Origin: Candidatus Enterousia sp.
GTDB lineage: Bacteria; Pseudomonadota; Alphaproteobacteria; Rs-D84
Length of the DNA stretch: 64,000 nucleotides
NCBI GenBank assembly: GCA_045634865.1
Contig: JAZRBB010000008.1
Coordinates: 14,407-78,406 of the forward strand
Reading direction: 5' to 3'
The position numbers and the translations under genes were made by a program. The notes beneath the pieces are model-generated. The model worked only from the letters and a program-made list of their open reading frames with translations, was not told the origin of the DNA and did no database searches. Numbering within the stretch: position 1 is the first letter of the stretch; the number at the start of each line of letters is the position of its first letter. Below, piece by piece: positions 7,233 through 59,431 of this stretch.

Positions 7233-7325
7233 CTTTATGTCCTTTTATTTTATAAAACTACCTAAATAGCCCGAAGATTATACCTGGTTTTTTCTTAAAA
7301 TCAAGATAAACTTGTTCTTTATATA

Positions 7326-20038: not shown

Positions 20039-20271
20039 TATTTTCCCCACATACACACCAAAAAATACCGATTTTTTGACGGTTCAGAACTATAAAAAGA
20101 TAATGGATACCATTCACAACCATTCAACCAAGTGAGTTGGAATTTTATCGTCATATACCAACGTCTTTCTATGGATTCTGAATCCCATCAGATGAACGCC
20201 ATCTGATACAAGAATGATAACAAAATGTGATATTTTAATACAAGAAAATTTTTTATTGATTTATCAATTAT

Positions 20272-20297
20272 AAAAACACTGCCCAAAAGGGCAGTAT
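20272..20297 (-). terminator. Intrinsic terminator after the lipoprotein gene
   Basis: ACTGCCC-AAAA-GGGCAGT hairpin with a T-run on the minus strand. Confidence 0.7.
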
Positions 20298-20314
20298 TGA
20301 ATAGTTTTGTTTTT

Positions 20315-20845: not shown

Positions 20846-20946
20846 AGTTAAACCTTTTATTAAAAAACATTTTTGACAAAACATAACATAGTATATTTTA
20901 GACTATTGTCAAGTTTTTTTATGGCTTCGTCATAAAATAGCAGATT

Positions 20947-21678: not shown

Positions 21679-21748
21679 CAAATACCCTTCGTAATCCAAT
21701 ACACAAATACAATACCAAAAAACACACTTGTGTCAAATTATTTTAAGT

Positions 21749-24367: not shown

Positions 24368-24437
24368 TTATTTTGTCTCCGATATCAAATTGATTATTCT
24401 GATATACTATCTCTTTTATAAATCCTGTTAAATAATC

Positions 24438-25553: not shown

Positions 25554-26341
25554 TTGTGTTTCCATATCAATGCATAAAATTTTTTAGCAGAAATTCGTAT
25601 TTTAAGCAAGATTTTTTCGTTTTTATGTACAGGCATAATATTTGTGTGGTGGACTCTCTTGAATCTTACAATACTGAAACGACCAATTTTTAGTTTGTTT
25701 TTTCTGTTCCAGCCATCAAGCCAAGATCCGTTAAATAAATGAATTGAATAATTGGGTTTGTTTTCAACAGGTGTGCAGAAAAACCAAGATGGATAAATCA
25801 CACCATCTTCATTTAATTTTATTGTTTGTTTTCCATCATAAGGTGGTCGAACATCGTATTTATCACGAAAATAATTAGACACCCGAACAGTATTGGTAAT
25901 TTGATTATATGTTCCATCTGAATTTATGAAATGTAAACCATCATATTGTGATAATAAATCGGTAATAATAACAGAATCTTTTTCCGCCCCCATAAAGGCT
26001 GTAAATGGAAAATCCATATTACGAAAAGATTCGTGTCCTGTGACAAATTTGTTGTTTCTGAATTGATCGATATTGTTAGTTAGTTCTAGGTCGGAATCAA
26101 AATAAAATCCCCCAAATTTTTTCAGAGCATATAGACGGATATAATCAGATACAAATGCCCATTTTTTTTCTTGAAAGGCTTCGTTAACATACGCATTATT
26201 GATTTCTTGCAGACAATCATTGTTCCATTCAATGATCTTATAATCTGGACAAAACTTCTTCCAGGATTCGATACATCTTTTTACCAATTCTGGTTTGTCC
26301 TGGGTTCCCACCCATACAAAATGAATAATTTTAGGTATCAT
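25550..26341 (-). CDS. Glycosyltransferase family 32 (DXD sugar-binding, capsular polysaccharide type)
   Basis: MIPKIIHFVWVG, WKKFCPDY, WAFVSDYIRLYAL, GGFYFDSD, HLFNGSW. Confidence 0.9.
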   Translation of the reverse strand: MIPKIIHFVWVGTQDKPELVKRCIESWKKFCPDYKIIEWNNDCLQEINNAYVNEAFQEKKWAFVSDYIRLYALKKFGGFYFDSDLELTNNIDQFRNNKFVTGHESFRNMDFPFTAFMGAEKDSVIITDLLSQYDGLHFINSDGTYNQITNTVRVSNYFRDKYDVRPPYDGKQTIKLNEDGVIYPSWFFCTPVENKPNYSIHLFNGSWLDGWNRKNKLKIGRFSIVRFKRVHHTNIMPVHKNEKILLKIRISAKKFYALIWKHK

Positions 26342-27503
26342 TATTTTGCCTTTTGTTTATCAAATTGATAATTTCGTTTGCAATTGTTTGTGGATTAAAC
26401 CTGTCCAATGATTTTAATGCCTGGGCTTTCATGGTTTTTGTTTTAACCAAATTATTATATACATCAGCCAAAGCCCCGGTTAATTCATCAATATTACCGG
26501 GCTGAAACAAAATTCCTGCACGTCCGTTCATCAAAATTTCATGTGGTCCATTTGGACAATCTGATGATATGTTCAGTGTATTCGCAGCCATAGCTTCAAT
26601 CAGAACTTGCCCGAAACCTTCGTTATAACTGGACAATATATGCGCCATTGAACCAGCCATATAGCCAAAAGGATTTTGTTTGTTGCCTGTGAATATTATT
26701 TGTTCCGCAGATTGTAATGTTTTTGCAAGATTCTGAAAATCTTGTGCTTTTTCGCCACTGCCCACAATATACAATTTGACATCAGGGCGATTTTCATTTT
26801 GCCAAAATTTATCGAAAGCGATAAGTAATGTTTTTATATCTTTGTCAGAATCTAATCTTGATACACATGAAAAATATTTGCCGTCCGGAACATTCGCAGA
26901 TTTAAGTTTTTTCTGAATTTCTGTCAAATTTATCGGATTATATATGCGTACGGCTTTATCTGCATAATCTGGATAAGTTTTAATAAAATCTGATAAAAAA
27001 CTATCGCTGATTGTGACGATTTTATCATATTGGCGCAGTCCAGATATCAAATTATTTTCACGAAAATAATTCATCGAACAATGTGCCCATGTCAATTTCA
27101 TCGGACCAGATATATTTCGTATCAGTTTGGAAGAATAACCGCTGATATAATCAATCAAAGCATCAAAATGTTTTTTGCGCACACGTGGTGCCATAATAAA
27201 ATTGCGATATTTTCTGTATATACCAAAACAAATGCGTTTCAGCAGTCTGCGTATCGGATGTTTTTTATTTTGCCTGTCAAAAAAGCGCGCCAACGGATAA
27301 TAAATAACAACATTTATATTCGGGTGCTTGTCCAGCCATTTTATATACACAGGTTCAATAATTGTTCGATGTGAATACAAAGTTATTTCAACATTTTTGC
27401 TGGCCAGCAAGGCATTAATCGTGTTCATTAAAACAGTGCCAACGCCACCAACGCGCAAATCATACATAAAAAAAGCGATTTTCAGTTTTTGCTGTTTTTT
27501 CAT
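26331..27503 (-). CDS. Glycosyltransferase family 4
   Basis: GGVGTVL, VRIYNPI, SSYNEGFGQVLIEAM, SSDCPNGPHEIL. Start is 27503 or 27551. Confidence 0.88.
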   Translation of the reverse strand: MKKQQKLKIAFFMYDLRVGGVGTVLMNTINALLASKNVEITLYSHRTIIEPVYIKWLDKHPNINVVIYYPLARFFDRQNKKHPIRRLLKRICFGIYRKYRNFIMAPRVRKKHFDALIDYISGYSSKLIRNISGPMKLTWAHCSMNYFRENNLISGLRQYDKIVTISDSFLSDFIKTYPDYADKAVRIYNPINLTEIQKKLKSANVPDGKYFSCVSRLDSDKDIKTLLIAFDKFWQNENRPDVKLYIVGSGEKAQDFQNLAKTLQSAEQIIFTGNKQNPFGYMAGSMAHILSSYNEGFGQVLIEAMAANTLNISSDCPNGPHEILMNGRAGILFQPGNIDELTGALADVYNNLVKTKTMKAQALKSLDRFNPQTIANEIINLINKRQNNDT

Positions 27504-27860
27504 AAAATAACTTTTCAACCTTTTTGATGATGCAAGTATTCTATAAAACACCGGCTATTTCAATACAATTTTACCAGATGCCCAAATATCATTATAAAGA
27601 CCCGTCAGTTGGGTTGCATAACCCAATTATCAATGCTAAACGATTCGTTTTATGGCTGTGAATATATGTAATAATAGGAAAATTTTACCGCATTTTATTC
27701 CTGATGTGATATTGAATTTTTGCCTGGTTTTTGGGAATTTTTTATTATTCAATCGCATTCAATATCCCCATTTTATAAATCTGATTTCTAAAAACGGTAT
27801 AAAGTAAATTTCCTAAACAGGAATATAATGAATGATGTCGCAACACAAAGGAGTAAAAAA

Positions 27861-28088
27861 ATGACACATCAAGATATATGGCAAGCAATTGATAATTTTG
27901 CTTTTCAACAACAAATGTCCTGCTCGGGTCTGGCAAAGTTTTCTGGGTTGGACGCAACAACGTTTAATAAAAGCAAACGCTGGTCAAAATATGGTCAGCC
28001 CAGATGGCCATCCACAGGAAGTATCGCAAAGATATTGAATTCCACAGGAAAAACTTTGGAGGACTTTATAAAATGCGTTTGCGAATAA
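27861..28088 (+). CDS. Stand-alone helix-turn-helix protein resembling the N-terminal domain of alphaproteobacterial S24/CI-like repressors
   Basis: MTHQDIWQAIDNFA...SGLAKFSGLDATTFNKSKR...PRWPSTGSIAKIL with an AAGGAG RBS; stops before any peptidase S24 domain. Confidence 0.75.
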   Translation: MTHQDIWQAIDNFAFQQQMSCSGLAKFSGLDATTFNKSKRWSKYGQPRWPSTGSIAKILNSTGKTLEDFIKCVCE

Positions 28089-28125
28089 AGATTTTTATTT
28101 ACAAACAGATTTATATGGCTAATAT

Positions 28126-29034
28126 ATGAATATGTCCACATTAAAAACAAAACTGATTTTATTGAAAGAGTTATTGGCTCTGAAGGAAGTTGTTGATAAG
28201 GGTAGTATTCAGATTGCCGCATGTGAAAACGGCATCAAAAATTCTAATCTTTCCCAAATGATTAAAGAATTAGAAGACAGATTTCATACTAAACTTATCA
28301 ACCGCAGTTTTGATGGCAGTCAACCGACAAATTCAGCTCAGTTGATTTATAACGATATATGTGCCATAGAAGAATTGCTTAATAAAATCGCAGAAAATTT
28401 TGTGGATATGGAGGCTTTGTCCGGTTCAATGTCTGTCTGGACCGAAGAAGGTTTATTCGGCAGTTTTATTCTGAAAGATTTGTCTGAATTTTATGCCAAG
28501 TATCCAAAACTGCGTTTGGAATTATTGATGCGCAAAGAGCCTGATATATCCAACATGGATATTTTAATCATTAAACCAAAAGTGCATCCAAATATTCATG
28601 GAACCGTTTTGTTCAAGTTCAAGACGCATCTGAAATTTTATACCAGTAAAAAATATCTGGAAACACATGGTGTTCCACAAAATATAAACGATTTGCTAGA
28701 AAATCATGATTTGTGTATGGTTTATCGTTATATGAATTTGCCCGAATGCCAAAGCATTATAAAACGTGCCAAGCATTTGAATACTATTTCTGATTCATTG
28801 GCTTTGATATACAGATTGGTTAACGATGGCGACGGTATTACGGTATTTCCATCTTGGTTTGAGGATAGCAGTAAGAATCTGGTTTGCTTGAATGATTTAG
28901 ATTTTGAATACGAAATGGAAACCCAGTGCGTCTGCAGGACAGAGATTGCAGAATCACCAAAAGTTTGCGCTTTCGTGAATTTCTTTATAGATTTTTGCAA
29001 GGGCCACAACGTCCCAATTGATATATATTATTGA
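28126..29034 (+). CDS. LysR-family transcriptional regulator
   Basis: N-terminal wHTH (GSIQIAA...NLSQMIKELEDRFHTKLINRS) and CrgA-like sensor (YPKLRLEL, YLETHGVPQNINDLLENHDLC). Confidence 0.88.
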   Translation: MNMSTLKTKLILLKELLALKEVVDKGSIQIAACENGIKNSNLSQMIKELEDRFHTKLINRSFDGSQPTNSAQLIYNDICAIEELLNKIAENFVDMEALSGSMSVWTEEGLFGSFILKDLSEFYAKYPKLRLELLMRKEPDISNMDILIIKPKVHPNIHGTVLFKFKTHLKFYTSKKYLETHGVPQNINDLLENHDLCMVYRYMNLPECQSIIKRAKHLNTISDSLALIYRLVNDGDGITVFPSWFEDSSKNLVCLNDLDFEYEMETQCVCRTEIAESPKVCAFVNFFIDFCKGHNVPIDIYY

Positions 29035-29140
29035 TTGTTTTTTTTGTTTTTCGGCAGGAAAAAGAAAATCATATAAACCCAGATCGCGATTAGCTTGGTC
29101 GGCCATGCCGATACTCTGAATCAAACGGGCGCGAACAAAC

Positions 29141-29171
29141 AATTAAACCGGCAAAATGCCGGTTGAATTTT
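29141..29171. terminator. Bidirectional terminator-like hairpin
   Basis: AATTAAACCGGCA-AAA-TGCCGGTTGAATTTTT. Confidence 0.6.
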
Positions 29172-29199
29172 TGGTTGGGGTGTGCGGGCGAAACGCGAG

Positions 29200-29228
29200 T
29201 TGAGAGATATACTGTTTTGTGTTATAAT
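29200..29228 (+). promoter_or_regulatory. Sigma70-type promoter of the methyltransferase gene
   Basis: TTGAGA-17 nt-TATAAT with an extended -10 TG. Confidence 0.7.
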
Positions 29229-29248
29229 TATTGGAAAGGATTTTGGTT

Positions 29249-29989
29249 ATGAACAAAAAAACATTAGCAAGGTTTTATAAGACCCGAAACAAATCAGAAG
29301 TTGTATCAGAAAACAATGTAAAGCTTGAAAGATTTATAACAAATACATACCTGCAAAAATATATAACATTGAAAAAATCCGTTGTTGAAATTGGCGCAGG
29401 TATTCGTGCATATTCACCAGAATTGGTTAAATTAGCAAAATATGTTTTGGCTGTCGATTTGTTCCAAGAAAATTTAGATAAATTAAGCAGTAAAAAGATA
29501 AACACATTATGTGCAGATATTACTGATTTGAAATCTATTAAATCTGGTTCTTTTGATGTTGTATTCGTAAATGGTCCGATGTCGCATTTGTTTGATGATA
29601 CAGAACGCATACAGGCAATTAAAGAATCTTTTCGTATATGTAAAAAAAATGGTGTTGTATTGTTTAATTATTTAACTAATACACCAATAATATATCGTTC
29701 TGGATTGATAAAGGGAAATATTAACGCATTAAAGAAATATGATAAACGCACAGCAAAAGACATATACGCAACATATTTTGTAAATGATTTTCATAAATTG
29801 GTATCAAAAACCAAAATGAAACATATATGTGATGTATCTTTGGATGGATTGTTCGAAATATTGAAAGAATACACAAACAAATTGGCTAAAACTGAATTTA
29901 ATGCCTTAAAACAAATGCAATTAAGTATAGCAGAACGACCAGATATGATTGGTTGTAGTACTCATGTTTTAAGTATTTACAAGAAATAA
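29249..29989 (+). CDS. Class I SAM-dependent methyltransferase
   Basis: VEIGAGIRAY, AVDL, CADITDL, FDVVFVNGPMSHL, and C-terminal SLDG...ERPDMIGCSTHVL. ATG 29249 has an AAAGGA RBS. Confidence 0.85.
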   Translation: MNKKTLARFYKTRNKSEVVSENNVKLERFITNTYLQKYITLKKSVVEIGAGIRAYSPELVKLAKYVLAVDLFQENLDKLSSKKINTLCADITDLKSIKSGSFDVVFVNGPMSHLFDDTERIQAIKESFRICKKNGVVLFNYLTNTPIIYRSGLIKGNINALKKYDKRTAKDIYATYFVNDFHKLVSKTKMKHICDVSLDGLFEILKEYTNKLAKTEFNALKQMQLSIAERPDMIGCSTHVLSIYKK

Positions 29990-30321
29990 TTCGTTTCGCC
30001 CACACACCACAACCATTTTGAACAAAAAGAATATTTAGAGCGGATTTTCATTAGTTTTATAAGATTGTTGTTAGTTCGAATGTTATTAGCGTGTTATAAG
30101 CAGTTCGAAAGCATGGATAACGACATAATTTTTCAAAACTAAACTTTCGAACTTGCCAAAGTCTTATATTTTTGCTCTCTGGAATGCGCACGAGAGCTTG
30201 AATGCAAAGCGCACGGATTGTAATTCCCAACACTTCGTGTTGGGCCCCTTTCACTACGCTAACGCTTCGTTACGAACCAAACAACTTCGTTGTAGTGGCC
30301 TAATACCGAAAACACACCAAA

Positions 30322-30434: not shown

Positions 30435-30504
30435 AAGATATGCCAATTATATATGTCTTTAATAATTTTTCAATAATAAAATAAAAAAATTTTTAATCAT
30501 GCTC

Positions 30505-30553
30505 TTGACTTTAAGATATGAAATACATATAATCATTAAAAATTTTAATGATT
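30505..30553 (+). promoter_or_regulatory. Promoter of the marR-RND operon with overlapping palindromic operator
   Basis: TTGACT-17-TATAAT (30505-30533); perfect inverted repeat AATCATTAAAA-A-TTTTAATGATT (30531-30553). Confidence 0.75.
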
Positions 30554-30585
30554 TAGTTTCTGAACAATTAACCAAGGGGGTATCT

Positions 30586-31032
30586 ATGACACATACCGAA
30601 GTGACACAATTGATGGCTGAAAATATGCGTATTATGGGGCGGTTGGCCAATCGTTTACAGCCTTTGTTCGAAGGCTCCAAACAATCGCGTCAGCAAATGA
30701 CAGTTTTGGTTCGTCTGTATTTATCCGGCAAAATCAAACTGAAAGATTTTTCTGCGCGTGAGGTTATTTCTACGGCTAACCTTTGTAGTGTTTTTCGCAA
30801 GTTGGAACAAGATAAATTGGTTGTTCGTTCAACTGACCCAGATGATCATCGTGATACTTGGTATGAAGTTACTAAATCAGGTAAGGTTTTAGCAGAAAAA
30901 ATTATTGATAAATTTATGACTGCGTTGGAATCTCTGTGCAAATGTTTGCCCGAATCTGAACAAGATAGATTGGCAGAAACCAGCAGGACTATAAATGAAA
31001 TATTGAAAAAGATGGAGCAAGCAAATGCGTAA
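30586..31032 (+). CDS. MarR-family transcriptional regulator
   Basis: wHTH with LEQDKLVVRSTDPDDHRDTWYEVTKSG; ATG 30586 has an AAGGGG RBS. Confidence 0.88.
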   Translation: MTHTEVTQLMAENMRIMGRLANRLQPLFEGSKQSRQQMTVLVRLYLSGKIKLKDFSAREVISTANLCSVFRKLEQDKLVVRSTDPDDHRDTWYEVTKSGKVLAEKIIDKFMTALESLCKCLPESEQDRLAETSRTINEILKKMEQANA

Positions 31033-32332
31033 ATTATTATTGTGTGTATTGTCGTGTGTGGCGGTAATCCCAAATGCGTTCGGTATGGATTTGTCGTTAA
31101 ATCAGGCGATTGAAAAAATCGTATCTGAATCTAATGATATTAAACGCGCAGATGCGAATATCAAGAAAGCAAAAGCACAATTAAGTGCTGTAAACGCAAA
31201 CCGTTGGATGTCGATTGATGGCACTGTGTCATATATGAATTTGATAAATGTGAAACGCCCAACCAGTTCGAATGGTGTTGAAATACCGTCTGATATTGGC
31301 GCGATTCTGGGTAGCGTTTTGCCACTTGATGCTATACCGGATAATATTTTTTCAGCAGGTGTGCAAATAACCCAACCTATTTATACTTTTGGTAAAATTG
31401 GAAATGCGGTTGATGCTGTGCATGATGCAATTGATATGTCTAAATCAGCCAAAGATTTAACCATGCGTGAAGTTAAGTATGCGGCGGCTAATTTATATTG
31501 GACTGCAAAAATGACAGATGAAATTGTGTCTGCGTCACAAAGAAATCTGAACAACGCACGTGCTGCGAAAAAGAAACTGACATCGGCAGGACGTGCAAAT
31601 CGCAGCAATTTAATTAAAATAGAATCTGATATTGCGTCCAAAGCAATCAATTTATCTGACGCTGAATTTAATCGTGATACAGCATACAGAATGCTGAAAA
31701 TTATGGCGGGAATTGATGTTGATGAAGATTTAATTTTGGTTGATAATTTTCCAGATAAATTTGCACCACTAAATGCAGGTAAATTAAAATCAAATCCAGA
31801 ATGGGATATTTATCAAAAACAAATTAAAATGTATGAATCGAATGCGTCGTCTAAACGTTCAGGGGCTTATCCAACATTGGCAGCAGTTGGTTCGTATTCT
31901 TTTTATTCTATGGGGCCTGATATGGGACATATGTTTGATAAAGAAGGTTCGCAGTCTGCATATTGGGGCTTGGCTTTGCAGGTTCCGTTGTTTAACGGTG
32001 GAATCCATTCTGCAAATGCAACAATGGAAGCGATGAATGCGGAATCTGCCCGTCAAGATTTGGATAAATCAAAGAAACTGAAAACCGAAGAATATGATAA
32101 CGCAGTAAGTAAGTATAAACATTTATGTAATAATTTGGGTAAGTTGAAAAAAGCGCACTCGCTGGCCCAGCAAGCATATGATGTGTCTGCAAAACGTTTT
32201 GCGACCGGTCAAACCTCTGCTGTTGAATTGGCTGATGTTTCTGGGGCTTTATATCAAATGGATATGGCTTTGTTAAATGCGAAATACAATATTTTAATGT
32301 CTGCAGAATCGGTTAAGAAATTAGGTGAATAA
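31025..32332 (+). CDS. tolC: TolC-family outer membrane channel
   Basis: Signal peptide, LSLNQAI, ITQPIYTFG, LQVPLFNGG, RFATGQTSAVEL. Confidence 0.85.
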   Translation: MRKLLLCVLSCVAVIPNAFGMDLSLNQAIEKIVSESNDIKRADANIKKAKAQLSAVNANRWMSIDGTVSYMNLINVKRPTSSNGVEIPSDIGAILGSVLPLDAIPDNIFSAGVQITQPIYTFGKIGNAVDAVHDAIDMSKSAKDLTMREVKYAAANLYWTAKMTDEIVSASQRNLNNARAAKKKLTSAGRANRSNLIKIESDIASKAINLSDAEFNRDTAYRMLKIMAGIDVDEDLILVDNFPDKFAPLNAGKLKSNPEWDIYQKQIKMYESNASSKRSGAYPTLAAVGSYSFYSMGPDMGHMFDKEGSQSAYWGLALQVPLFNGGIHSANATMEAMNAESARQDLDKSKKLKTEEYDNAVSKYKHLCNNLGKLKKAHSLAQQAYDVSAKRFATGQTSAVELADVSGALYQMDMALLNAKYNILMSAESVKKLGE

Positions 32333-32333
32333 A

Positions 32334-32948
32334 ATGACAACTGAAAAAATAGAAAATTTTGTAAAAAAATTGAAAACAAAAAAATCAAAAAATATCATTT
32401 ATATATTTTTGATGGTTGTGTTGATTGGTTGTTTTGCTTATCGCTTTTATAACGTGTTCACAGAAAGAAATCGCACAGTGTTTAATATCATGCGTAATAA
32501 TATTGAAAACGGAATACCGGTTGAAACATTGAAAATATCTGAAACAAATGGTGTGTTATATCAACCGTTAAACATAAAAAATAATCGCGCATATGTATCG
32601 GGGGCGCGTGTCAATATGTTCAAGGTTGGTCAAAAAATTGGTAATTGTAAAATCGTTTCTGTATCAAAAAATATAGATTTATATTCTGGTATGCATGTTA
32701 TAAAAACATCTGGTTGTCCAGACGGTTTGCAATATGTGGAACACAGGCAATATGGTTTCTATGTGCCGGTTTCTGCTGTATATGGCAATAATGTATATGT
32801 TGTAAATGGTGATAAATCAAGTGTTCGTGATATAGTCATAGAAGCGCGCGATTCACAAAATGTTTTGGTAAAATCTGGATTGAAAAATGGTGATATTGTG
32901 ATTTTATCAAAGGTTCAAGATAACGAAAAAATTAAAATTGTAAAGTAG
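32334..32948 (+). CDS. Miniature periplasmic adaptor (membrane-fusion-like) protein
   Basis: Position between tolC and RND; N-terminal TM; VPVSAV...VYVV and VKSGLKNGDIVI are typical MFP C-terminal motifs; only about 204 aa. Confidence 0.7.
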   Translation: MTTEKIENFVKKLKTKKSKNIIYIFLMVVLIGCFAYRFYNVFTERNRTVFNIMRNNIENGIPVETLKISETNGVLYQPLNIKNNRAYVSGARVNMFKVGQKIGNCKIVSVSKNIDLYSGMHVIKTSGCPDGLQYVEHRQYGFYVPVSAVYGNNVYVVNGDKSSVRDIVIEARDSQNVLVKSGLKNGDIVILSKVQDNEKIKIVK

Positions 32949-32967
32949 TGAAACAAAGGGATATAAA

Positions 32968-35900
32968 ATGTTAAAGTTCTTTATTCGCAGACCTGTCACA
33001 ACAATAATGTTCGTTTTGTTTTTTGTGGTTTTAGGGTTGGTTTCTTTTCCCAAAATGAACATAGAACGTTCGCCGTCTGTGGATTTTCCGTATGTGACGG
33101 TGACATTTGTATATCCGGGCGCTTCATCTTCTGAACTAGAAAGTCAGGTTGTTAAAAAAGCAGAAAATGCAATGTCAGAGGTTGCAGGTGTTAAAAAAAT
33201 TACAAGTCAGATTTATGAAAACAGCGCTTATGTTATATCTGAATTTAATTTGGGTGTAAATGTTGATGACAAGGCGAATGAGGTCAAAGCAAAAATTGAT
33301 GGATTGGCTAATGAATTTCCGTCAGATTTGAAACAACCAGTAATTGCAAAACTAAACCCATTACAGCAAGCGGTATTGGATATTGTTATCCAAGGTGCAG
33401 ACGCAAAAGATTTGGAAAAATATATAAAAGATAACCTGTCTAATAAAATAACAGCAGTTCGCGGTGTTGCATCTGTAAATACATTTGGTGGTTTGACGCG
33501 TGCTGTGCGTATCGCAATGGATCCAGATTTAATGGCTGCGCATGGTGTTACGATAAATGATATAGTATCTGCAATTGCAACACATAATTTGAATGTGCCA
33601 GGTGGAAAAATTGAAACAGATATCAATTCTGAAAATGTTCGTTTTGTTGGTGAATTCCAAAACGTCAAAGAAATATCAGATCTAGAGATAACAACTGTCG
33701 AAGGCGATACTTTCAAGTTGTCCGATGTTGCAAATGTTCGTGATGCCGCGCGTGATATTGAAAAAGGTGCCAGGTATAATGGCAAAGAGGTTGTTATAAT
33801 GTCTGTGGTCAAGGCTTCTGATGGTAATGCAATAAAAATATCAAACGCTTTGCGTAAAAAAATGCCGGAATTGCAAGCACAATTAGAAACCCGTTTCCAA
33901 AATGCAACGATGGAAATTGTTTCTGATTCATCTTTGACAATATCCCAAGCAACAACAGACACAATAAATAGTATTGTTTTGGGTGTTATATTTACAATCA
34001 TAGTATTGTTGGCATTTACGCGTAATTGGCGTTCTACGATTATTGCTGGTGTTGTGATTCCTGTATCATTATTATCAGGTTTCTTTCTTATGAACGGTAG
34101 CGGTTTTACAATAAACACCATGACTTTATTGGCGTATGCGACAGCGCTTGGCACATTAGTATCAAACGCGATTATTTTAATTGAATCTGCATTAAGTGAA
34201 TTGCAGGCTGGTAAAACACCAGAACAAGCCGCAGAAGAAGGGACGCGTAAGGTTGCAATTCCTGTGTTGGCTGGTGTTGGCACGAACGTAGTTGTGTTTT
34301 TACCCTTGGCATTTATGGGTGGTATTGTTGGACAATTTATGTTGCAGTTTGGTATGACTGTTGTTTATTTAACATTATTATCATTATTGTTTTCATTTAC
34401 TTTGACACCGATGATGATTGCGAAATTATTAAGATTTAATCAAAAGAACAAAAAAGATATTCAACAAGTACAAAAGCATAATAATTCTACGCGTTTGCAT
34501 TCGTGGTACGAATATCAATATAAACGTCCATGGATTGTTATTCTGGGGGCTGTTGGCATCTTGATTTTGTCTGCCAGGTTGATGGGTTATGTCGGAAATG
34601 AGTTTTCGCCATCTACAGACGCAAATGAAATAACAATTACAGCACGTGCGCCAATGGGCAGTTTATATGCAAAATCTGAGTCTATTGCAAAAATCATAGA
34701 AGAACGAGTATCGAACATTCCAGAGGTTAAATCTACAACGGTTAAGATAGGTGATAAAGGTTTGCAGAATATCAGTGTCAAAGTGACATTGGTTGATGTT
34801 GAAAAACGAAAAATATCTGATAAACAGTTGGCGCAACAAATATTACCAACATTGGCTGATATCCCCGATGCAGAAATCCAAATTCGTGCAGGAGAAAATA
34901 TGTCCAGCGCTGGTATAAGTTCTGATTTGGTATTAAATGTATTTGGTGATGATGATGATAAACGTAATATGTATGCAAATCAGATAATAGCAAACATTAA
35001 CAAAATAGAATCTGTGCAAAGTGTGGTTCTGGCACAACAAGCACCAGCAAAAGAAATTCGCTTTATACCAGACAATGAAAAAATGAATTTTTGGGGTGTG
35101 AAAAATGCAAATGCTGGGGTTGCTTTGCGTACAGCATTATTTGGGAACGATACACATAAATACAAAGAGCATGGTGATGAATATCCAATAGTTTTAGAGT
35201 TCGATAAACAATTCAAGAATAAATCGATGTTTGATAGTGTTTATGTCAGTTCTCAAAAAGGGATGGTTGCGTTATCACAATTGGGAACCTTGGAAAGCGC
35301 GCCTGCATCATCTAATATTTATCGTTTGGATAAAAACAGAATAACAGAAATAGATATAAATATTGGTAAATCTACGATTGGTCCTGTGCAGGCCGAAATC
35401 CAGAAATATTTGGATACTATAAATTGGGAACCAGGATACAGCGCGTCTTTTGCAGGTATGTCCGAAATTCAATCTGAAAGCACAGGTGAAATCGCTCAGG
35501 CATTTTTGTTGGCTACGATTTTAACATTTATGTTATTGGCTGCAATTATGAATTCGTTTATACATCCGTTCACTATTGCGACATCTATTATAACCAGTTT
35601 TGCGGGTGTGTTTATTGTGCTGTTTTTATCTGGTGCATCAATGAATGTCGGTGCGATGTTGGCGTTTATTATGTTGGTTGGTTTGGTTGTGAATAACAAT
35701 ATTTTGGTTTTGGAACCAACAGTTGCACGTGTGCAAAGGGGTGAAAACGCATATAAAGTTTTATGGCAAGAATTGATGGATAAAAAGCGTATGATTTGGA
35801 TGACTACTATTGCTGTCGTTGCGGGTATGTTGCCACAATTATGGTCAAATGATGGATTGAAAGTCGCGATGGGTGCGGTTATGATTGGCGGTATGTGTGC

Positions 35901-35985
35901 GTCTTTGATATGGACGTTCTGTCTGACACCCGCATTGTTCTTTGTAATGGAAAAGTTGCGTGTAAAATTGAGTCGCAAGAAATAA
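32968..35985 (+). CDS. RND-family (AcrB-like) transporter with non-canonical TM4/TM10
   Basis: FIRRPV, PSVDFP, YPGASS, 12-TM RND layout with two periplasmic loops; TM4 VSNAI and TM10 VNNNI. Confidence 0.92.
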   Translation: MLKFFIRRPVTTIMFVLFFVVLGLVSFPKMNIERSPSVDFPYVTVTFVYPGASSSELESQVVKKAENAMSEVAGVKKITSQIYENSAYVISEFNLGVNVDDKANEVKAKIDGLANEFPSDLKQPVIAKLNPLQQAVLDIVIQGADAKDLEKYIKDNLSNKITAVRGVASVNTFGGLTRAVRIAMDPDLMAAHGVTINDIVSAIATHNLNVPGGKIETDINSENVRFVGEFQNVKEISDLEITTVEGDTFKLSDVANVRDAARDIEKGARYNGKEVVIMSVVKASDGNAIKISNALRKKMPELQAQLETRFQNATMEIVSDSSLTISQATTDTINSIVLGVIFTIIVLLAFTRNWRSTIIAGVVIPVSLLSGFFLMNGSGFTINTMTLLAYATALGTLVSNAIILIESALSELQAGKTPEQAAEEGTRKVAIPVLAGVGTNVVVFLPLAFMGGIVGQFMLQFGMTVVYLTLLSLLFSFTLTPMMIAKLLRFNQKNKKDIQQVQKHNNSTRLHSWYEYQYKRPWIVILGAVGILILSARLMGYVGNEFSPSTDANEITITARAPMGSLYAKSESIAKIIEERVSNIPEVKSTTVKIGDKGLQNISVKVTLVDVEKRKISDKQLAQQILPTLADIPDAEIQIRAGENMSSAGISSDLVLNVFGDDDDKRNMYANQIIANINKIESVQSVVLAQQAPAKEIRFIPDNEKMNFWGVKNANAGVALRTALFGNDTHKYKEHGDEYPIVLEFDKQFKNKSMFDSVYVSSQKGMVALSQLGTLESAPASSNIYRLDKNRITEIDINIGKSTIGPVQAEIQKYLDTINWEPGYSASFAGMSEIQSESTGEIAQAFLLATILTFMLLAAIMNSFIHPFTIATSIITSFAGVFIVLFLSGASMNVGAMLAFIMLVGLVVNNNILVLEPTVARVQRGENAYKVLWQELMDKKRMIWMTTIAVVAGMLPQLWSNDGLKVAMGAVMIGGMCASLIWTFCLTPALFFVMEKLRVKLSRKK

Positions 35986-36048
35986 AATTGACTCAGCATC
36001 AGTTTCGTGATATTCTGCTGGCATACCAAAAGCCAAGGAATAAGACAC

Positions 36049-36648
36049 ATGTTAAAGAAAGTAAGTGTAGTAGTTTTTGATTTTGACGGAACATTATCTG
36101 CTGGCGATTCAAACATTGATTTTGAATGCTATTGTTTCAGACATTCGGTCAAGCCATGGTTTTATATTCCGTCTATGCTAGTTGCATTAGTTGTGAAGTT
36201 TTTCAATCCAGATGGCATTTGGTGGCGACAAAAAATGCATAGATTTTTAACACAAAAAATGGTTCGTGATTTTACGCCAGCATTTATCAAAGAGCACAAA
36301 CAAAAACGTTTTGGTTGGGCCAAGGAGCAGGTCGCTAAAGAAAGCGCCGCTGGTAATAAAGTTGTTTTAATTTCAGCCAGTCCTGATTATTTGGTTCCAA
36401 AGTTGGTTTCTGATATTAAATTTGATGCAGTGTTAACTTCTGAAACCCAGCAAGATAAACCATGGAAATATGATTTTGTATGCTATGGTAAAAACAAAGT
36501 CGTTGCATTGGACGATTGGGCGAAAAAAAATAATTTTATACCAAATGTTGTGCGTTCTTATTCGGACAGTCGCTCTGATATACCGATTATGAATATCGCA
36601 AAAGAACAAATTTGGATAAACCGCAAAACAGGTCTGCGTAAAAACTAA
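36049..36648 (+). CDS. HAD-superfamily (IB) phosphatase
   Basis: FDFDGTL, ISASP, YGKNKV, YSDSRSDIP. Confidence 0.85.
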   Translation: MLKKVSVVVFDFDGTLSAGDSNIDFECYCFRHSVKPWFYIPSMLVALVVKFFNPDGIWWRQKMHRFLTQKMVRDFTPAFIKEHKQKRFGWAKEQVAKESAAGNKVVLISASPDYLVPKLVSDIKFDAVLTSETQQDKPWKYDFVCYGKNKVVALDDWAKKNNFIPNVVRSYSDSRSDIPIMNIAKEQIWINRKTGLRKN

Positions 36649-36653: not shown

Positions 36654-36675
36654 AAACCAGCGATTGCTGTTTTTT
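36654..36675 (+). terminator. Terminator after the RND/HAD operon
   Basis: CAGC-GATT-GCTG followed by T6; short stem. Confidence 0.5.
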
Positions 36676-36733
36676 GTTTGGTTTTATACCTAAAATTTGA
36701 TAAAATATTCCCTGTAGATAGTGAGGGAAAATC

Positions 36734-37705
36734 GTGAAGTTTTCAGATGTTTTTTGTAAGAAGTGTTTATACGCGATTTTTTCGTGCGTTTGCTTGCCAA
36801 GTACATCTTTTGCAGTGGAAATTTTAGATTTAAATACCGCATTACAAAATACGTATCGTGCATGTGTTGGTATTGATGATAAATTATCAGATTATAAAAC
36901 ATTGGCGGGCATAAATACTGGTGTCCAGGCTGTGGGTACGGGTCTTGGTGTTGGCGCAACAGTTGTTGGTATTGTAAAGGTTTCAACGGATAAGGCGGCA
37001 GAATCTTATGAAAAAATACTGAAAGAATTGCGTGAAAAAACAAAAAATGTTAAATATGAAACTTTGACAGACGAAGACAAAGCAAATTTTGAAAAAGAAT
37101 TTGAAGTTTCGTTTGATACGGCTGTAAAAGATATTGATAATTACAAATCAGAATTAGACAAACTTACAACTAAATCAAAAAAATTGGGTAATTGGCGAAC
37201 TGGATTATTGGCAACAAATACCGCAACCAATGTGGCTGGTGCAATATTGGCTTCCCAAAGTGGTCAAAACAAAGATTTGCAGGCAATGGTGAAAAATTGT
37301 TTGGAGAGTATTGATGCATTAAATATGTCCATTGGTCAGGCGCGCATAAATGGTGAGGATGTATCAGAGGCAAAAGAAATCGCGTCGGCATGTGGCGAAT
37401 ACAGGTCTGTTGATGTTTCGTCTATATCAAAACGTGCAACCGGTGCTATGGCGGCATCTATCGTTGGTGCTGCGACTGGTGCGACAGGAACGATAACATC
37501 AGCTGTGGCGAATACGGATAAAATACGTAATGACAATACCAATGCTGGTAAAAAGAAAGAAAAGGATTTGAATACAGCATCTAATGTGCTGGCGGGTGCA
37601 ACAGCGGTTGCGTCTGCAACATCAACGGTATTTAGTGGGACACAAATAGCAGCGATAAAACGTGTCGCAAATGTAGCGTCCAGGTGTGAGGGGGTATTGA
37701 AATGA
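36734..37705 (+). CDS. Exported protein with four Gly/Ala/Thr-rich hydrophobic helices and a coiled coil (translocator/pore-former-like)
   Basis: GAGGG RBS and GTG start, signal peptide, two-fold internal repeat; overlaps the next gene (ATGA). Confidence 0.75.
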   Translation: MKFSDVFCKKCLYAIFSCVCLPSTSFAVEILDLNTALQNTYRACVGIDDKLSDYKTLAGINTGVQAVGTGLGVGATVVGIVKVSTDKAAESYEKILKELREKTKNVKYETLTDEDKANFEKEFEVSFDTAVKDIDNYKSELDKLTTKSKKLGNWRTGLLATNTATNVAGAILASQSGQNKDLQAMVKNCLESIDALNMSIGQARINGEDVSEAKEIASACGEYRSVDVSSISKRATGAMAASIVGAATGATGTITSAVANTDKIRNDNTNAGKKKEKDLNTASNVLAGATAVASATSTVFSGTQIAAIKRVANVASRCEGVLK

Positions 37706-40700
37706 TAAAAAATATTCTTGTCACATTGATTTCGGTTTTTTGTTTAATTGTGAACGCAAATGCGAACATAAAAATTAGCTCAGATGTTGTTGATAACAGT
37801 ATCAAAGAAACATTTGTTGGGGAACAAAATCAGGCTTCTGCATTAGCTACCTGGAAAGAAAACATAGAAAATGACGGCAGTATATCGGCATTGGCTGTAT
37901 GGCGTGTTTGTTGGGCTGGTGGTTTAGATATTAAGAATAAACCAGAAGATAAAAATAAGTGTCAAATTTTTAGGCAAAATTTATTAAAAGATTCATCATT
38001 AAAATATCGTACAACTTGTCAAAAGAATGCAGGTGAAGGGACATATTGCATAGATGATTTCTTTACAAATAGTTTTTATGGTGGAACCCAGGTTGGTTTA
38101 TCAGATGCTATTATGTTGGCAAAAGAATGGGCGCGAATAAATCATGCAGACGACAGCCTGGAATGTGATGATAAAGTAATAACAGTAAAACCAAAGAATA
38201 TATTAGCGCGGGCATCTGATGATTATGCTATATTATGTGCATCAAAAAATCGCAAGACGTATTACGAATTTGTTTTTGACCATATTGGTGAAAGTGACAG
38301 TGGGGCGATATTTAATAGTGTCGGTGCTGCAACATGTAAATTATTTAATACAAAGGCTAATGTGCCGACTTTGGCATGTATTGCGCGAACACCAGAACAT
38401 ATAGAAAATACAAATGGAAATTGTCAGCCTGTTTCTTGTGATTCAGATGCTAATACCTGTGGAAAAATAAACAGTACACTTGCAAAATTTGGGTATACAG
38501 GCGTATATAAGAATAATAAATGTGAAATCTTTTTTAATAATGTATCAGATAAGAAAGGTTTAAAAACAGCATTTGGTATAAATTCCTTTGAATTTTGTAA
38601 AGGTATCAAAGTTCAAAACACACCGTCAGTAGAAGCACTGTTAAAACAGCATATTGTCAAAAATGCCAAAGTTGATATATCTGATGTTTCATGCAGTCCA
38701 GGACATCGTATATACAATGGCCCTGGTTGTTCTGATGATGGTAAAGATGGTATAAAAACATGTTATGTCCAGGGACAACAGATTGATTTTGTGTTTGATG
38801 ATATAAGTACATTTATAAAAGAATACCACCAAGGTGGCATTCAGGGTATGGAATGTGTTATCAGTGGTGGGACATTTTCTGGTCAACATTGTGCACATTT
38901 GAATCAAGAACAATGTGACGCGCTTGCCAAATCAGATGTATCACGTTGTTCTGTTTGTAGGGATATAGAGTGGGACAAAGAAAATAATATATGTAAATTG
39001 AAAAATGCAGAAAATGCCAATGATTTAGAAAAAACTATAAATATAGCGCAATTGGCTGCTGCCACAACTGCAGCGGTATTTACTGGTGGTATAATTGCGT
39101 TTACTGCGGTAAAAGTTGGAACGGTTGCATTTACTGTTCCTGTTCTGTTGACGCTTGTTAATGTGACCGGTCAGATTATGGAATTTGTCGGGACTTTAGA
39201 GGCCAAAGGCATAGCAAAAGAGTTTATTGTACAATCAAACAATTGTAATGACAGTAATTGTGCAGACCTGTTAGTCAAAGATTGGTTGCAACGTCTGTCT
39301 AATTTACGAAATGAACTTACCAAGGCAGAATATAACGGTATAAATGAAGAATTAGCCAGATTGTTAAAAATGACGTCAAAGAAATTCAAAGAAAATATGG
39401 CAATGAATATTTTGATAGAATATTCCAGGGGCGCGAATAAAGGTGATATATCTGCAAATGTGCAAAAGAAATTCCAAGAATTGTATGAATCACCAGATTT
39501 ATTGGAATCAAACAAAAAAGGCTTCTTTGATAAAGACAGTTGGGAACCAGAACAGGTTTTGCGTGCAGTCGGAATTGGTTTACAGATTGCTTCAACGATA
39601 GGTAGTGCTGTATATAGTTGGCACCAAGAAAATAAGGCCTTGGCTGCAACGCGTGACGCTTTGAACGAAGGATATGACGGTATAACCCACGATCCAGCAA
39701 AACGCGAAGCAGTAAAAAAGCAATTGGCCAACGCGAACATTGTAAAAATTGATACAGATAGTTATGAAAACAAGTTGCGCGCGGCATATCAAAAATATGC
39801 ACCAAAGAATCAAACATATGATGATTTTGTAAAAATGTTCAAAAATGAAGAAGAATTTGATAAACAAGTTGCCAGATGGTCTTCTTTTGAACCTGTCGTT
39901 TTTAAAGAAAGTCAATATGCAGCAGCATATACTATGTCCTCTCCGTATTCAACTTATGATCCTGAATTTGCAAAAACTATGAAAGACATAGATGCAAAAT
40001 ACGCAGATGATATTGCTGAATTGGATGCTAAAATCAAAACTATAGACGATCAAAGAAAAAACATAGTAAAAGAACAACAACGGTTAATAAGGCAGGAAGC
40101 AAAAGAAAGGATAGGACGTGATGTGCGGTATAAAGATTGGGATTTAGAGGAATTAAAAGATTTAAAATCAAAAGATGAAATGGTGTCGTTAAAAACTTCC
40201 GATTTTAAACTAGATAAAGTACCAGCATCTGAATTTTCACCAGAAGAACTAAAGCTTTTGGATGAAAAATATAAATTAGAAAATATGCATGAAGGTTATG
40301 TTACAGCAAGGGATGTTGAAAAAAGTAAAGTAATAAATGCAAGTGTAGATAAAGAACTTTTGGGAAAATATGTTACAGAGCGTGAAAACATAATGATTAA
40401 AACAATAGCAGAAGATGATGATTTGTATAACAACCTTAAAAATTGGTCAGATATAAGCGATGAGGAGAAACGTATCAGCATACAAAAGATGTATGATTCA
40501 CTTGATAAGTCAGAAAATATTGTGGAGCAACCAGCTGTATATGTATATAAAAACCCTAATTCAACTATAAGAGCAGATGCTGGCAGACGATTTAATCTTA
40601 ACCCGTTGGGTGAAGATGTTAGTGCAAATAATCTTCCAAAAACGGTTTTACATGAATTTTCACACACTGGCGATAGTTATGCTCCTGATAGTGGAATGCT

Positions 40701-40857
40701 TGGTGCTCAAAAATCTGCGATAAGATTTGAAGGAAGTCGTACATACTGGGATATATACAGGACAGTGCCCTCAGAAGTGATTAGTTGGAAATTTACAGAT
40801 TCGGACACAGATATAATTGGTGAAGTCGAAAAAATGCGCGAAGCGATGGGAAAGTAA
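37702..40857 (+). CDS. Large exported Cys-rich protein with hydrophobic hairpin and C-terminal HExxH metallopeptidase-like domain
   Basis: Signal peptide; 25 Cys, all in the first ~515 aa; hydrophobic AAATTAAVFTGGIIAFTAVKVGTVAFTVPVLLTLV; VLHEFSH at aa 984 followed by YRTVPSE. Confidence 0.75.
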   Translation: MIKNILVTLISVFCLIVNANANIKISSDVVDNSIKETFVGEQNQASALATWKENIENDGSISALAVWRVCWAGGLDIKNKPEDKNKCQIFRQNLLKDSSLKYRTTCQKNAGEGTYCIDDFFTNSFYGGTQVGLSDAIMLAKEWARINHADDSLECDDKVITVKPKNILARASDDYAILCASKNRKTYYEFVFDHIGESDSGAIFNSVGAATCKLFNTKANVPTLACIARTPEHIENTNGNCQPVSCDSDANTCGKINSTLAKFGYTGVYKNNKCEIFFNNVSDKKGLKTAFGINSFEFCKGIKVQNTPSVEALLKQHIVKNAKVDISDVSCSPGHRIYNGPGCSDDGKDGIKTCYVQGQQIDFVFDDISTFIKEYHQGGIQGMECVISGGTFSGQHCAHLNQEQCDALAKSDVSRCSVCRDIEWDKENNICKLKNAENANDLEKTINIAQLAAATTAAVFTGGIIAFTAVKVGTVAFTVPVLLTLVNVTGQIMEFVGTLEAKGIAKEFIVQSNNCNDSNCADLLVKDWLQRLSNLRNELTKAEYNGINEELARLLKMTSKKFKENMAMNILIEYSRGANKGDISANVQKKFQELYESPDLLESNKKGFFDKDSWEPEQVLRAVGIGLQIASTIGSAVYSWHQENKALAATRDALNEGYDGITHDPAKREAVKKQLANANIVKIDTDSYENKLRAAYQKYAPKNQTYDDFVKMFKNEEEFDKQVARWSSFEPVVFKESQYAAAYTMSSPYSTYDPEFAKTMKDIDAKYADDIAELDAKIKTIDDQRKNIVKEQQRLIRQEAKERIGRDVRYKDWDLEELKDLKSKDEMVSLKTSDFKLDKVPASEFSPEELKLLDEKYKLENMHEGYVTARDVEKSKVINASVDKELLGKYVTERENIMIKTIAEDDDLYNNLKNWSDISDEEKRISIQKMYDSLDKSENIVEQPAVYVYKNPNSTIRADAGRRFNLNPLGEDVSANNLPKTVLHEFSHTGDSYAPDSGMLGAQKSAIRFEGSRTYWDIYRTVPSEVISWKFTDSDTDIIGEVEKMREAMGK

Positions 40858-40901
40858 TAAAATATTCCAGCAGAATAAAATATCTGTTTGCAAACTCGTT
40901 T

Positions 40902-41780
40902 TTACTCTTCACCAAAATCCATATCACGTAGTTTTTCTGCACGTGGGGTGATTTTGGAAACTGATGTCTGAATTTGTTCTATGTCACCCGTTGTTTGTGC
41001 AAAATGTTTTTGCAGGTTTTCTGTGCGGTCATTTAATCTGGTTAAATCTGTCAGCAATAAATCCAATTCGCGTTTAATCTTGCTGGCTACGCGTTTTATC
41101 TTTATGTCTGATAATACCGCACGAATTGTATTTAATGTTGCCCATAAAGTCGCAGGCGAAACAATAAATACTTTTTTGCGTGCAGCATATTCAATTGTAT
41201 CTGGAAATTCGCTGTGCAATTCTTCGAATATAGATTCAGACGCAATAAACATCATTGCAGATTCTGCGGTTACACCAGGTATAATGTATTTTTCAGCGAT
41301 TGCATCAATGTGTTTGCGAACATCTAATTCAAATTGTTTTTTGTAGCCTATGTTATCCTTGTCCTGCAAAATGCGATTATAACTTTCCAGCGGAAATTTG
41401 CTGTCTATGATCATATCGCCCGGTGGATAAGGCAGGCGTATAACACAGTCAGGACGAACACCAGTTGATAACACACTTTGAAATGCATAACTTTCTGGTG
41501 GCATAATATCAGAAACTAAATCTTCCAACTGTCTTTCACCAAAAGAACCGCGTGCCTGTTTATTGCCCATTAAAATATCCTTGAAATTCGCAATATCGGC
41601 ACTGATGTTTTTTAGTTCAATTGCGTTTTGCGACAGCATACCCAATCTTTCAGCCAATCTTTCGCGTAATCTGGAATTGTCTTCGTGCAAAGTCGATATA
41701 TCAACAGTTTGCTTTCTGAATACCAATATCAAAAGCAATACTATGATGATGCCCAGTAAGGATAAAATATAAGTTGTCAT
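40902..41780 (-). CDS. rmuC: DNA recombination protein RmuC
   Basis: RGSFGERQL, RPDCVIRLP, IDSKFPL, KYIIPG, MFIASE, VSPATL. Confidence 0.92.
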   Translation of the reverse strand: MTTYILSLLGIIIVLLLILVFRKQTVDISTLHEDNSRLRERLAERLGMLSQNAIELKNISADIANFKDILMGNKQARGSFGERQLEDLVSDIMPPESYAFQSVLSTGVRPDCVIRLPYPPGDMIIDSKFPLESYNRILQDKDNIGYKKQFELDVRKHIDAIAEKYIIPGVTAESAMMFIASESIFEELHSEFPDTIEYAARKKVFIVSPATLWATLNTIRAVLSDIKIKRVASKIKRELDLLLTDLTRLNDRTENLQKHFAQTTGDIEQIQTSVSKITPRAEKLRDMDFGEE

Positions 41781-57922: not shown

Positions 57923-57928
57923 AGTTTT

Positions 57929-59428: not shown

Positions 59429-59431
59429 TGT

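Follow-up and report, generated by a model that had tools for sequence, protein, structure and literature searches.

A two-gene module of Candidatus Enterousia with a zincin-like C-terminal domain: a candidate polymorphic toxin/effector system

The DNA analysed here (the window) is a stretch of 64,000 nucleotides (nt) from Candidatus Enterousia sp. (GTDB lineage Bacteria; Pseudomonadota; Alphaproteobacteria; Rs-D84), taken from positions 14,407 to 78,406 of the forward strand of contig JAZRBB010000008.1 (NCBI GenBank assembly GCA_045634865.1). Positions 36734 to 40857 of the window carry a pair of genes, termed A and B below, which are considered as a candidate polymorphic toxin/effector module; their features are collected in Table 1. 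The genes are translationally coupled, the start codon of B and the stop codon of A sharing a 4-nt ATGA overlap (37702-37705), and a Shine-Dalgarno-like sequence precedes each of them. A first-pass annotation, made from the letters and a list of open reading frames (ORFs) alone, had described a coupled pair with its own ribosome-binding site, lying between a terminator and a convergent rmuC gene. The two ORFs were found exactly as claimed, with a GAGGGA ahead of the GTG start, and the rmuC side of the placement was borne out by a Pfam match; the upstream terminator was not, the sequence there being a 4-bp stem followed by a T-run at which the terminator scan made no call. The stop codons of B and rmuC lie 44 nt apart, so that no immunity gene can fit downstream of B.

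Table 1. Features of the A-B module and its downstream boundary (window coordinates; aa, amino acids; AF2, AlphaFold2)
Feature	Position	Strand	Description	Basis
Shine-Dalgarno-like sequence of A	36723..36728	+	GAGGGA, 5 nt 5' of the GTG of A	Read from sequence
Gene A	36734..37705	+	GTG start, 323 aa; all-helical partner protein, predicted to be exported	ORF call, AF2 model
Shine-Dalgarno-like sequence of B	37688..37694	+	GAGGGGG, within the 3' end of A, 7 nt 5' of the ATG of B	
Gene B, whole	37702..40857	+	ATG start, 1051 aa; modular protein, no curated family	ORF call
B aa 1-22	37702..37767	+	Signal-peptide-like, MIKNILVTLISVFCLIVNANA/N (stroke, predicted cleavage site)	Hydropathy, small residues at -3 and -1
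B aa 23-445	37768..39036	+	Cys-rich domain, putatively extracytoplasmic; 22 Cys, duplicated ~150-aa alpha/beta unit	
B aa ~74-225	37921..38376	+	First repeat unit, ending in a C...FVFD strand	
B aa ~241-398	38422..38895	+	Second repeat unit, ending in a C...FVFD strand	
B aa 449-498	39046..39195	+	Hydrophobic helical hairpin, two segments split by K472; conserved family-wide	
B aa 499-615	39196..39546	+	Conserved helical stalk with invariant C515-x4-C520	
B aa 616-640	39547..39621	+	Third, weakly hydrophobic, amphipathic, nearly invariant segment; W614 E615 .. R621 A622 V623 G624 .. W640	
B aa 682-1051	39745..40857	+	Swappable Cys-free tail cassette: K/E/D-rich helical linker plus C-terminal domain	
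B aa 870-1051	40309..40854	+	Zincin-like C-terminal domain	
B aa 984-988	40651..40665	+	HEFSH	
B aa 1019	40756..40758	+	Y1019	
B aa 1025	40774..40776	+	E1025	
rmuC	40902..41780	-	Convergent; downstream module boundary	Pfam RmuC, E 1.6e-55

Both proteins are predicted to begin with a signal peptide, as judged from their N-terminal hydrophobic segments and from A-x-A and S-x-A sites; in A the signal-like segment covers aa 1-27. The first-pass annotation had picked out a repeated C...FVFD unit in the Cys-rich domain of B. FVFD was found at residues 190 and 363, and alignment of the two halves by hhalign (probability 94%, E 9e-8) established a true internal duplication. In the AF2 model the predicted local distance difference test score (pLDDT) of this domain is mostly 70-90, and all of its Cys columns are invariant in 31 homologues; no fold match was found in PDB or BFVD. 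One hit of the second repeat (A5 profile 778-851) to the phage P1 tail-tube protein BplB (PDB 8jan, E 0.01) was without fold support and was taken as chance.

Two hydrophobic segments had been reported earlier for B; a hydrophobic stretch, the hairpin, was located at residues 449-498 and a weaker segment at 616-640. Crude sums on the Hessa scale were 1.6 for residues 451-469, about 4 (summed by hand) for 473-491 and 5.9 for 616-640; in hydrophobicity the first hairpin segment is clearly membrane-spanning and the second marginal. The stalk between the hairpin and the third segment is modelled as helices with pLDDT of 72-89 over aa 501-570, decreasing to 49-59 over 571-610. Mean charge in the flanks of the third segment is -2.05 before it and +2.95 after it, and in 93% of 184 homologues the following flank carries the more positive charge. 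Residues 1-650 of B are conserved across the family; beyond them conservation collapses, save for a C-terminal block in about half of the members. Mean pLDDT for the whole B model is 64.

Protein A was modelled with a mean pLDDT of 57. It contains four weakly hydrophobic Gly/Ala/Thr-rich helices (aa ~56-83, 154-177, 235-260 and 279-303) and four invariant Cys (positions 44, 189, 220 and 318). The helices were the sole basis on which A had been called translocator-like, and this label could not be upheld by any family or fold match: the best Foldseek match of the model was a generic helical bundle (E 0.47), ClyA, AhlB and MakA appeared only at E >= 1.3, and no sequence or fold likeness to pore-forming translocators (ClyA/Hbl-type alpha-pore-forming toxins, type III secretion translocators) was seen with this low-confidence model. 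The idea that A is a paralogue of part of B was rejected (hhalign probability 0.6%). A second, divergent partner type of 250 aa, likewise composed of a signal peptide and Gly/Ala/Thr-rich helices, precedes some B genes (L001:3441-4193 and 4197-7526), and P0220/P0222-type proteins (1370-2080 aa) carry it as an N-terminal fusion to B (41% identity over 168 aa, E 3e-31). Because of this fusion, partner and B are taken to share one function and one compartment. The two module types stand side by side on one contig.

The HEFSH...YRTVPSE ending that had been read from the letters of B was located at residues 984-988 and 1019-1025. HExxH or HExxGH occurs in 85 of 185 tails of the family, and when 32 diverse domains were aligned the H, E and H were invariant and the Y and E, 31 and 37 residues downstream, were conserved in at least 90%. 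In the AF2 model HEFSH lies on a helix (978-993), and E1025, 37 residues past H988, stands at the start of another (1023-1032), with low pLDDT between the two. Scans made member by member gave weak matches only, the best of which were to zincin families (DUF6782, E 3e-4; MPTase-PolyVal, E 8e-4; SprT-like, E 3e-3; also DUF5700, Aspzincin and M6), and a PDB sequence search matched B weakly to deuterolysin 1eb6 at the motif only (E 0.62). The domain of the window itself had no Pfam or NCBIfam match, a PDB profile search with it returned nothing, and a profile search with the domain alignment found four short matches (144-333 aa, no family) and no outside architecture. The domain is termed zincin-like, is probably of gluzincin type and lies outside any defined peptidase family. 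Of the gluzincin-type site proposed earlier, the HExxH and the downstream Glu, a putative third metal ligand, were borne out as a conserved module; a curated-family or fold match was not found.

Homologues of A number more than 958, at 53-91% identity; for B there are 36 close ones, and clustering at 50% gives 523 representatives. In a scan of species-representative genomes 369 A loci were found. Among the best 80 of these, two loci each are present in 10 of 70 assemblies, and on one contig two modules stand in tandem. Neighbourhoods were compared at 80 fetched loci. At the fetched loci A is followed, with an overlap of 4-22 nt, by a B-type ORF that bears a signal peptide and contains Cys, and the pair is present at essentially all 80, in differing neighbourhoods; since it is conserved in hundreds of loci, the pairing is more than chance. 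When the flanking ORFs of the 80 loci were clustered, only A and B recurred, with no conserved third gene, immunity gene or defence gene; the next commonest neighbour, found at 11 of the 80 loci, is a housekeeping gene.

Family members came from Candidatus Enterousia and from metagenome-assembled genomes labelled "Alphaproteobacteria bacterium", from ruminant, horse, chicken and human guts, and the A-B family is specific to Candidatus Enterousia (order Rs-D84). The module is chromosomal. No match to B was found in phage or plasmid records; a homologue of A (49% identity) was seen on only two IMG/VR contigs classed as viral, L097 and L098. Members of both protein families are annotated as hypothetical proteins only, and no description of the A-B family was found in the text searches made on Enterousia and Rs-D84. 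When A, B and the C-terminal domain were scanned against Pfam, NCBIfam, PHROGs and PADLOC, no match reached threshold, and PDB searches with the same three queries, by single sequence and by profile, gave nothing significant. Genomes of the GTDB order Rs-D84 are smaller than 1 Mb, lack respiration and have few transporters, and that of Candidatus Enterousia lacks the standard nutrient transporters; the lineage is predicted to be partner-dependent, living off other cells, and Candidatus Enterousia, which has never been cultured, is widespread in ruminant, horse, poultry and some human guts (PMC12306168).

Over the last 220 residues of the B family at least 8 unrelated C-terminal classes were distinguished on one N-terminal scaffold. 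The first-pass annotation had proposed a search for homologues with the same N-terminus and different C-termini, and these were found, including a near-identical relative with a replaced tail. Across residues 1-650 this relative, P0004, shares 96-100% identity with the B of the window; past residue ~680 the figure is about 20%. At the DNA level its contig, L094, is 96.7% identical to the window over 36671-39744, unalignable over 39745-40903 and 91.9% identical from 40904, inside rmuC, which places the breakpoints at 39744/39745 and 40903/40904 and makes codon 681 the last B codon of the matched stretch. In the syntenic locus L095 the tail is 96-100% identical, the N-domain only 46-60% identical over residues 200-550, and the flanks 84-100% identical. 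Synteny with rmuC is shared by L095, L015 and L038, among which the B tails differ; next to rmuC, L015 has a zincin-class B of 1344 aa and L038 a non-zincin B of 930 aa. From the tail swap in P0004, the N-domain divergence in L095 and the differing tails at the rmuC site, both ends of B appear to turn over as they do in conflict genes.

Among the tail classes, a clear enzyme-family match was obtained for the one resembling a small alarmone synthetase (SAS), the profile of which matches SaSAS (PDB 8vx3) at E 5e-9 and, faintly, Tas1 (E 6.4). At both fetched loci of this class, which are independent, an ~80-aa ORF and a gene for a 180-aa HD_4 hydrolase of small-alarmone-hydrolase-like kind come after B (L086:3475-4269 and L087:2734-3523); the latter protein (E 7e-17) has 4 Cys and no signal peptide. 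The two downstream genes are a candidate immunity pair in what would be a toxin-antidote arrangement, and the SAS-like class is the only one with a cognate downstream gene of immunity-like kind. The zincin class has no conserved downstream ORF, which together with the 44-nt gap agrees with the earlier statement that no immunity gene follows B.

For the zincin, kinase-like, J-like and ADP-ribosyltransferase (ART)-like classes the family matches are sub-threshold or at the level of motifs. Kinase-like tails contain two kinase-like repeats with the pattern HGDLxxN...D-F-E (Kdo family, E 3e-4). J-like modules were recognised from K[YF]HPDK in 10 tails of differing classes (P0033, P0198, P0208, P0219, P0239, P0247, P0259, P0263, L065 and L074) and from an FHEDK variant in 1 more, with DnaJ matches in 4 of 41. 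Tails with the pattern HG[ST]...YA provide an ART-like lead (Arr-ms, E 0.055, without PDB support), and the second-largest class and most others had no family match. Behind the J-like module of P0198 and L068 come a stretch rich in Thr, Ser and Asn and then the conserved motif GHDL[IL]G..AG.RA, also present in P0033/P0034. Small same-strand ORFs of 79-108 aa lie within about 35 nt of the B stop, or overlap it, in L091 (7269-7511), L003, L014, L027, L045 and L073; no homology among them was seen at BLASTP 1e-8, and they are possible class-specific partners.

This set of tails, and the rapid turnover of B, bring to mind a membrane-anchored, self-directed conflict system such as abortive infection, in which the periplasmic Cys-rich domain would sense a phage or predator attacking the envelope, and a tail domain toxic in the cytoplasm would then arrest the producer. 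A protease, an alarmone synthetase with a hydrolase antidote and a kinase do resemble a repertoire of defence effectors, and the topological arguments given below for a resident sensor apply equally here. PADLOC, however, matched neither B nor five other members and returned only coiled-coil noise for A, and no defence genes are conserved beside the module; nor would such a system be expected to deplete its tail of Cys, to occur in several copies in genomes smaller than 1 Mb or to keep a strongly conserved exported partner. It is regarded as very unlikely.

The distribution of Cys bears on where the parts of B reside. It had been noted from the letters that Cys is confined to the front of B and that the rear is Cys-free and rich in K, E and D. 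All 25 Cys lie between positions 14 and 520, 23 of them at or before 431 and the others at C515 and C520; residues 521-1051 contain none and are composed of 10.6% K, 9.3% E and 9.0% D. Across 184 homologues Cys makes up 4.7% of the N-domain and 0.16% of the tail, compared with a background of 1.29% in 20 other proteins of the window, an approximately 8-fold depletion of the tail that is specific to Cys, other residues standing at 0.5-1.6x background. The segment corresponding to aa 445-645 has 2 or 4 Cys in 181 of the 184 homologues, and the zincin-like domains have 0, 2 or 3, never 1. Protein A as a whole and the front of B have the look of extracytoplasmic proteins with disulfide bonds. The tail is purged of Cys, as though it met oxidising conditions or had to cross a membrane unfolded.

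Cys counts that are even or zero would also suit a protein that lies wholly outside the cytoplasm. B could then belong to a variable envelope or adhesion module, in which the hairpin serves as anchor, both large parts are periplasmic or on the surface, the tail acts as a TolA/TonB-like spacer and its C-terminal domain, here a metallopeptidase, works on the wall or matrix, be it that of the producer or that of a partner attached to it, and remodels it. The long K/E/D-rich helical linker, the P/T/S-rich linkers in one tail class and the predicted partner-dependent lifestyle are all in keeping with this. Tail domains that depend on ATP or Hsp70 cannot work in the periplasm, however, the hydrolase encoded beside the synthetase-like tail is cytoplasmic, and no peptidoglycan-, OmpA- or adhesin-type domain was detected, which leaves this account quite improbable.

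Several tail types must work in a cytosol, because they need ATP or Hsp70. The main rival explanation places them in the cytosol of the producer: B would be a resident inner-membrane sensor or transducer, with the Cys-rich domain in the periplasm and A as co-receptor, one or three helices spanning the membrane, and a cytoplasmic output domain acting on the cell's own targets, by a logic analogous to that of BlaR1/MecR1 or of membrane-anchored J proteins such as DjlA. The strength of the first hydrophobic segment and the acidic-before, basic-after bias at the third (93% of homologues) speak for this arrangement, as do the cytosolic ATP or Hsp70 required by kinase-like, synthetase-like and J-like tails, the cytoplasmic HD_4 partner, the lack of an outer-membrane export device and a zincin class that has no immunity gene. 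It leaves unexplained why a cytoplasmic domain should be depleted of Cys 8-fold, and of Cys specifically, or why zincin domains should hold 0, 2 or 3. A recent swap of the output domain between strains with 97% identical DNA and a hyper-divergent sensor part are more usual in conflict genes than in signalling genes, the third segment is only marginally hydrophobic, and neither Peptidase_M56 nor any other signalling family was matched. On balance a resident sensor is considered unlikely. The topology as read from sequence is ambivalent, in that the charge bias favours a cytoplasmic tail and the Cys statistics favour an exported one.

We favour the reading that the locus is one copy of a previously undescribed polymorphic toxin/effector module with a zincin-like cargo, at a probability of about 0.5; that the logic of polymorphic toxins here operates on an undescribed trafficking scaffold is given even odds. 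Delivery of the tail into another cell is proposed because it reconciles cytosolic tail enzymes with a Cys-free tail and an extracytoplasmic front. In the mechanism envisaged, A and B would leave the cytoplasm through Sec and become oxidised in the periplasm, and the Cys-rich domain would bind the surface of a target cell. The hydrophobic hairpin, the third segment and the four glycine-zipper-like helices of A would form or gate a membrane passage, through which the Cys-free tail would be threaded unfolded into the cytosol of the other cell, where the cargo would act. The cargo at this locus would be a gluzincin-type zinc endopeptidase, with H984, H988 and E1025 as predicted ligands and E985 as predicted general base. 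The target cell may be bacterial, archaeal or that of a eukaryotic partner, the organism apparently being dependent on a partner.

Several observations weigh against a delivered toxin. The hydrophobicity of B residues 451-469 would suffice for a stop-transfer anchor in the inner membrane of the producer, and the charge bias at the third segment suits the cytoplasmic tail of a resident membrane protein. No known secretion or trafficking domain was found in A or B in Pfam or NCBIfam, and no outer-membrane route was identified. For the zincin-like domain no curated metallopeptidase family reached threshold and Foldseek searches of PDB and BFVD recovered no solved zincin (none at E <= 0.001), the AF2 models of both proteins are of modest confidence, the kinase, ART-like and J assignments lie below threshold or at motif level, and the zincin class, this locus included, has no conserved downstream immunity gene.

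The first-pass annotation had called the system host- or eukaryote-directed. This direction is not indicated by the data: the one class with a recognisable toxin domain has an antidote-like neighbour, and as the product of that neighbouring hydrolase gene is cytoplasmic, action in a bacterial cytoplasm is suggested at least for the synthetase-like class. It may be speculated that a zincin class lacking an immunity gene would fit a target that the producer itself does not possess.

Polymorphic toxin systems include CdiA-CT/CdiI, Rhs, MafB and related systems, reportedly surveyed by Zhang, Aravind and colleagues in 2012. The A-B module shares with them a conserved N-terminus with hypervariable enzymatic C-termini, exchange at sharp breakpoints and several copies per genome, and one of its tail classes has a class-specific antidote-like gene. 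It differs in that TPS/FHA, type V secretion (T5SS), type VI secretion (T6SS) PAAR/VgrG, Rhs/YD, type VII secretion (T7SS) LXG, MafB and DUF1020 domains are all absent from A and B (Pfam, NCBIfam), in that a hydrophobic hairpin and a duplicated Cys-rich domain occur in their place, along with a Sec signal and a conserved upstream partner gene that is obligatory, and in that its commonest class, the zincin class, is without a conserved immunity gene.

In single-chain AB toxins of the CNF1/DNT/PMT type, hydrophobic helices lie in the middle and the catalytic domain is at the C-terminus, and a hydrophobic hairpin is found in the T-domain of diphtheria toxin; CNF1/DNT/PMT-type toxins are not known to have a Sec signal peptide, 22-Cys domain or partner gene. 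The order of parts in B, with a putative binding part, a pair of hydrophobic helices and a C-terminal enzyme domain in about 1000 aa, is that of CNF1/DNT/PMT, and its cargo is Cys-free, as expected of a domain that unfolds to cross a membrane. No sequence or fold similarity of B to these toxins was detected, and delivery by B is putative. The zincin-like domain resembles gluzincin effector proteases such as anthrax lethal factor and the clostridial neurotoxin light chains, and the uncharacterised zincin families DUF6782, MPTase-PolyVal and SprT-like, in having an HExxH on a predicted helix, a conserved downstream Glu, the putative third ligand, at the start of another, and a conserved Tyr 6 residues ahead of the Glu. 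A sub-family has HExxGH, which is the zinc site of DPP III (M49). The domain matches no family model at threshold.

Synthetases of (p)ppApp or (p)ppGpp act as toxins with hydrolase antidotes in Tas1 and in toxSAS, the latter with a small alarmone hydrolase. The sister tail class that combines a SaSAS-like synthetase with an HD_4 hydrolase gene, found in relatives and not in the window gene, resembles these, and differs in that the synthetase forms the C-terminus of a Cys-rich, Sec-signal-bearing protein of 850-990 aa. BlaR1/MecR1 (M56) likewise unite an extracytoplasmic sensor-type domain and an HExxH gluzincin-like domain in one membrane protein; their Peptidase_M56 domain, with several transmembrane helices, stands N-terminal to the sensor, whereas in B the domain order is reversed, Peptidase_M56 and transpeptidase-like matches are absent, and the output domain is interchangeable.

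Being lineage-specific, present in multiple copies in spite of a tiny genome, subject to cassette exchange and equipped with intracellular types of enzyme, the module is a concrete candidate for an interface of Enterousia with partner cells. Were delivery to be confirmed, the repertoire of polymorphic toxins would gain a new trafficking architecture together with uncharacterised cargo domains, mostly of no known family, and the receptor-binding domain could be used as bait to identify the partner organism. A more far-reaching proposal, tentative and rather doubtful, is that A and B together are a delivery device of a kind not known before, dependent on Sec and built from two components, in a diderm bacterium. 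It would have a disulfide-locked receptor-binding head, glycine-zipper-like helices that insert in the partner membrane, and a Cys-free tail with interchangeable enzymes, in some versions with a J domain that would recruit the Hsp70 of the target to pull the tail in; and for the Enterousia lineage, with its reduced genome and few transporters, it would serve as the chief means of exploiting or killing the cells on which the lineage depends.

Some features of the surrounding DNA remain to be recorded. In L094 (1-61) and L095 (4914-4977) a copy of ~62 nt of the 3' part of rmuC (window 40948-41012) lies directly 5' of A, so that the module at these two loci stands between direct repeats of an rmuC fragment; the window has no upstream copy. 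The repeats are a possible footprint of insertion or recombination. Just upstream of the module the window has an efflux operon (30499-35985, plus strand) that encodes a MarR-type regulator, an outer-membrane efflux protein, a 207-aa ORF and a 1005-aa resistance-nodulation-division (RND)-type transporter, labelled AcrB-like from the PF00873 match of the syntenic, 95% DNA-identical gene in L095. A HAD-family hydrolase follows at 36007-36648, and in L095 it is replaced by an uncharacterised 457-aa ORF.

Further away, GC content falls to 0.32-0.34 over window positions ~20000-30000, compared with about 0.37-0.40 elsewhere; this stretch, which includes a group-1 glycosyltransferase gene (26331-27551), may be a surface-polysaccharide cluster. 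Genes for VirB10/TrbI-like (813 aa), VirB9/CagX-like (499 aa) and VirB8-like (230 aa) proteins lie 15 kb from the module (55481-60124, minus strand). Type IV secretion genes are not consistently linked to the A-B module, and VirB3/VirB4 were found about 1-5 kb downstream of another A-B copy (L003/L004).

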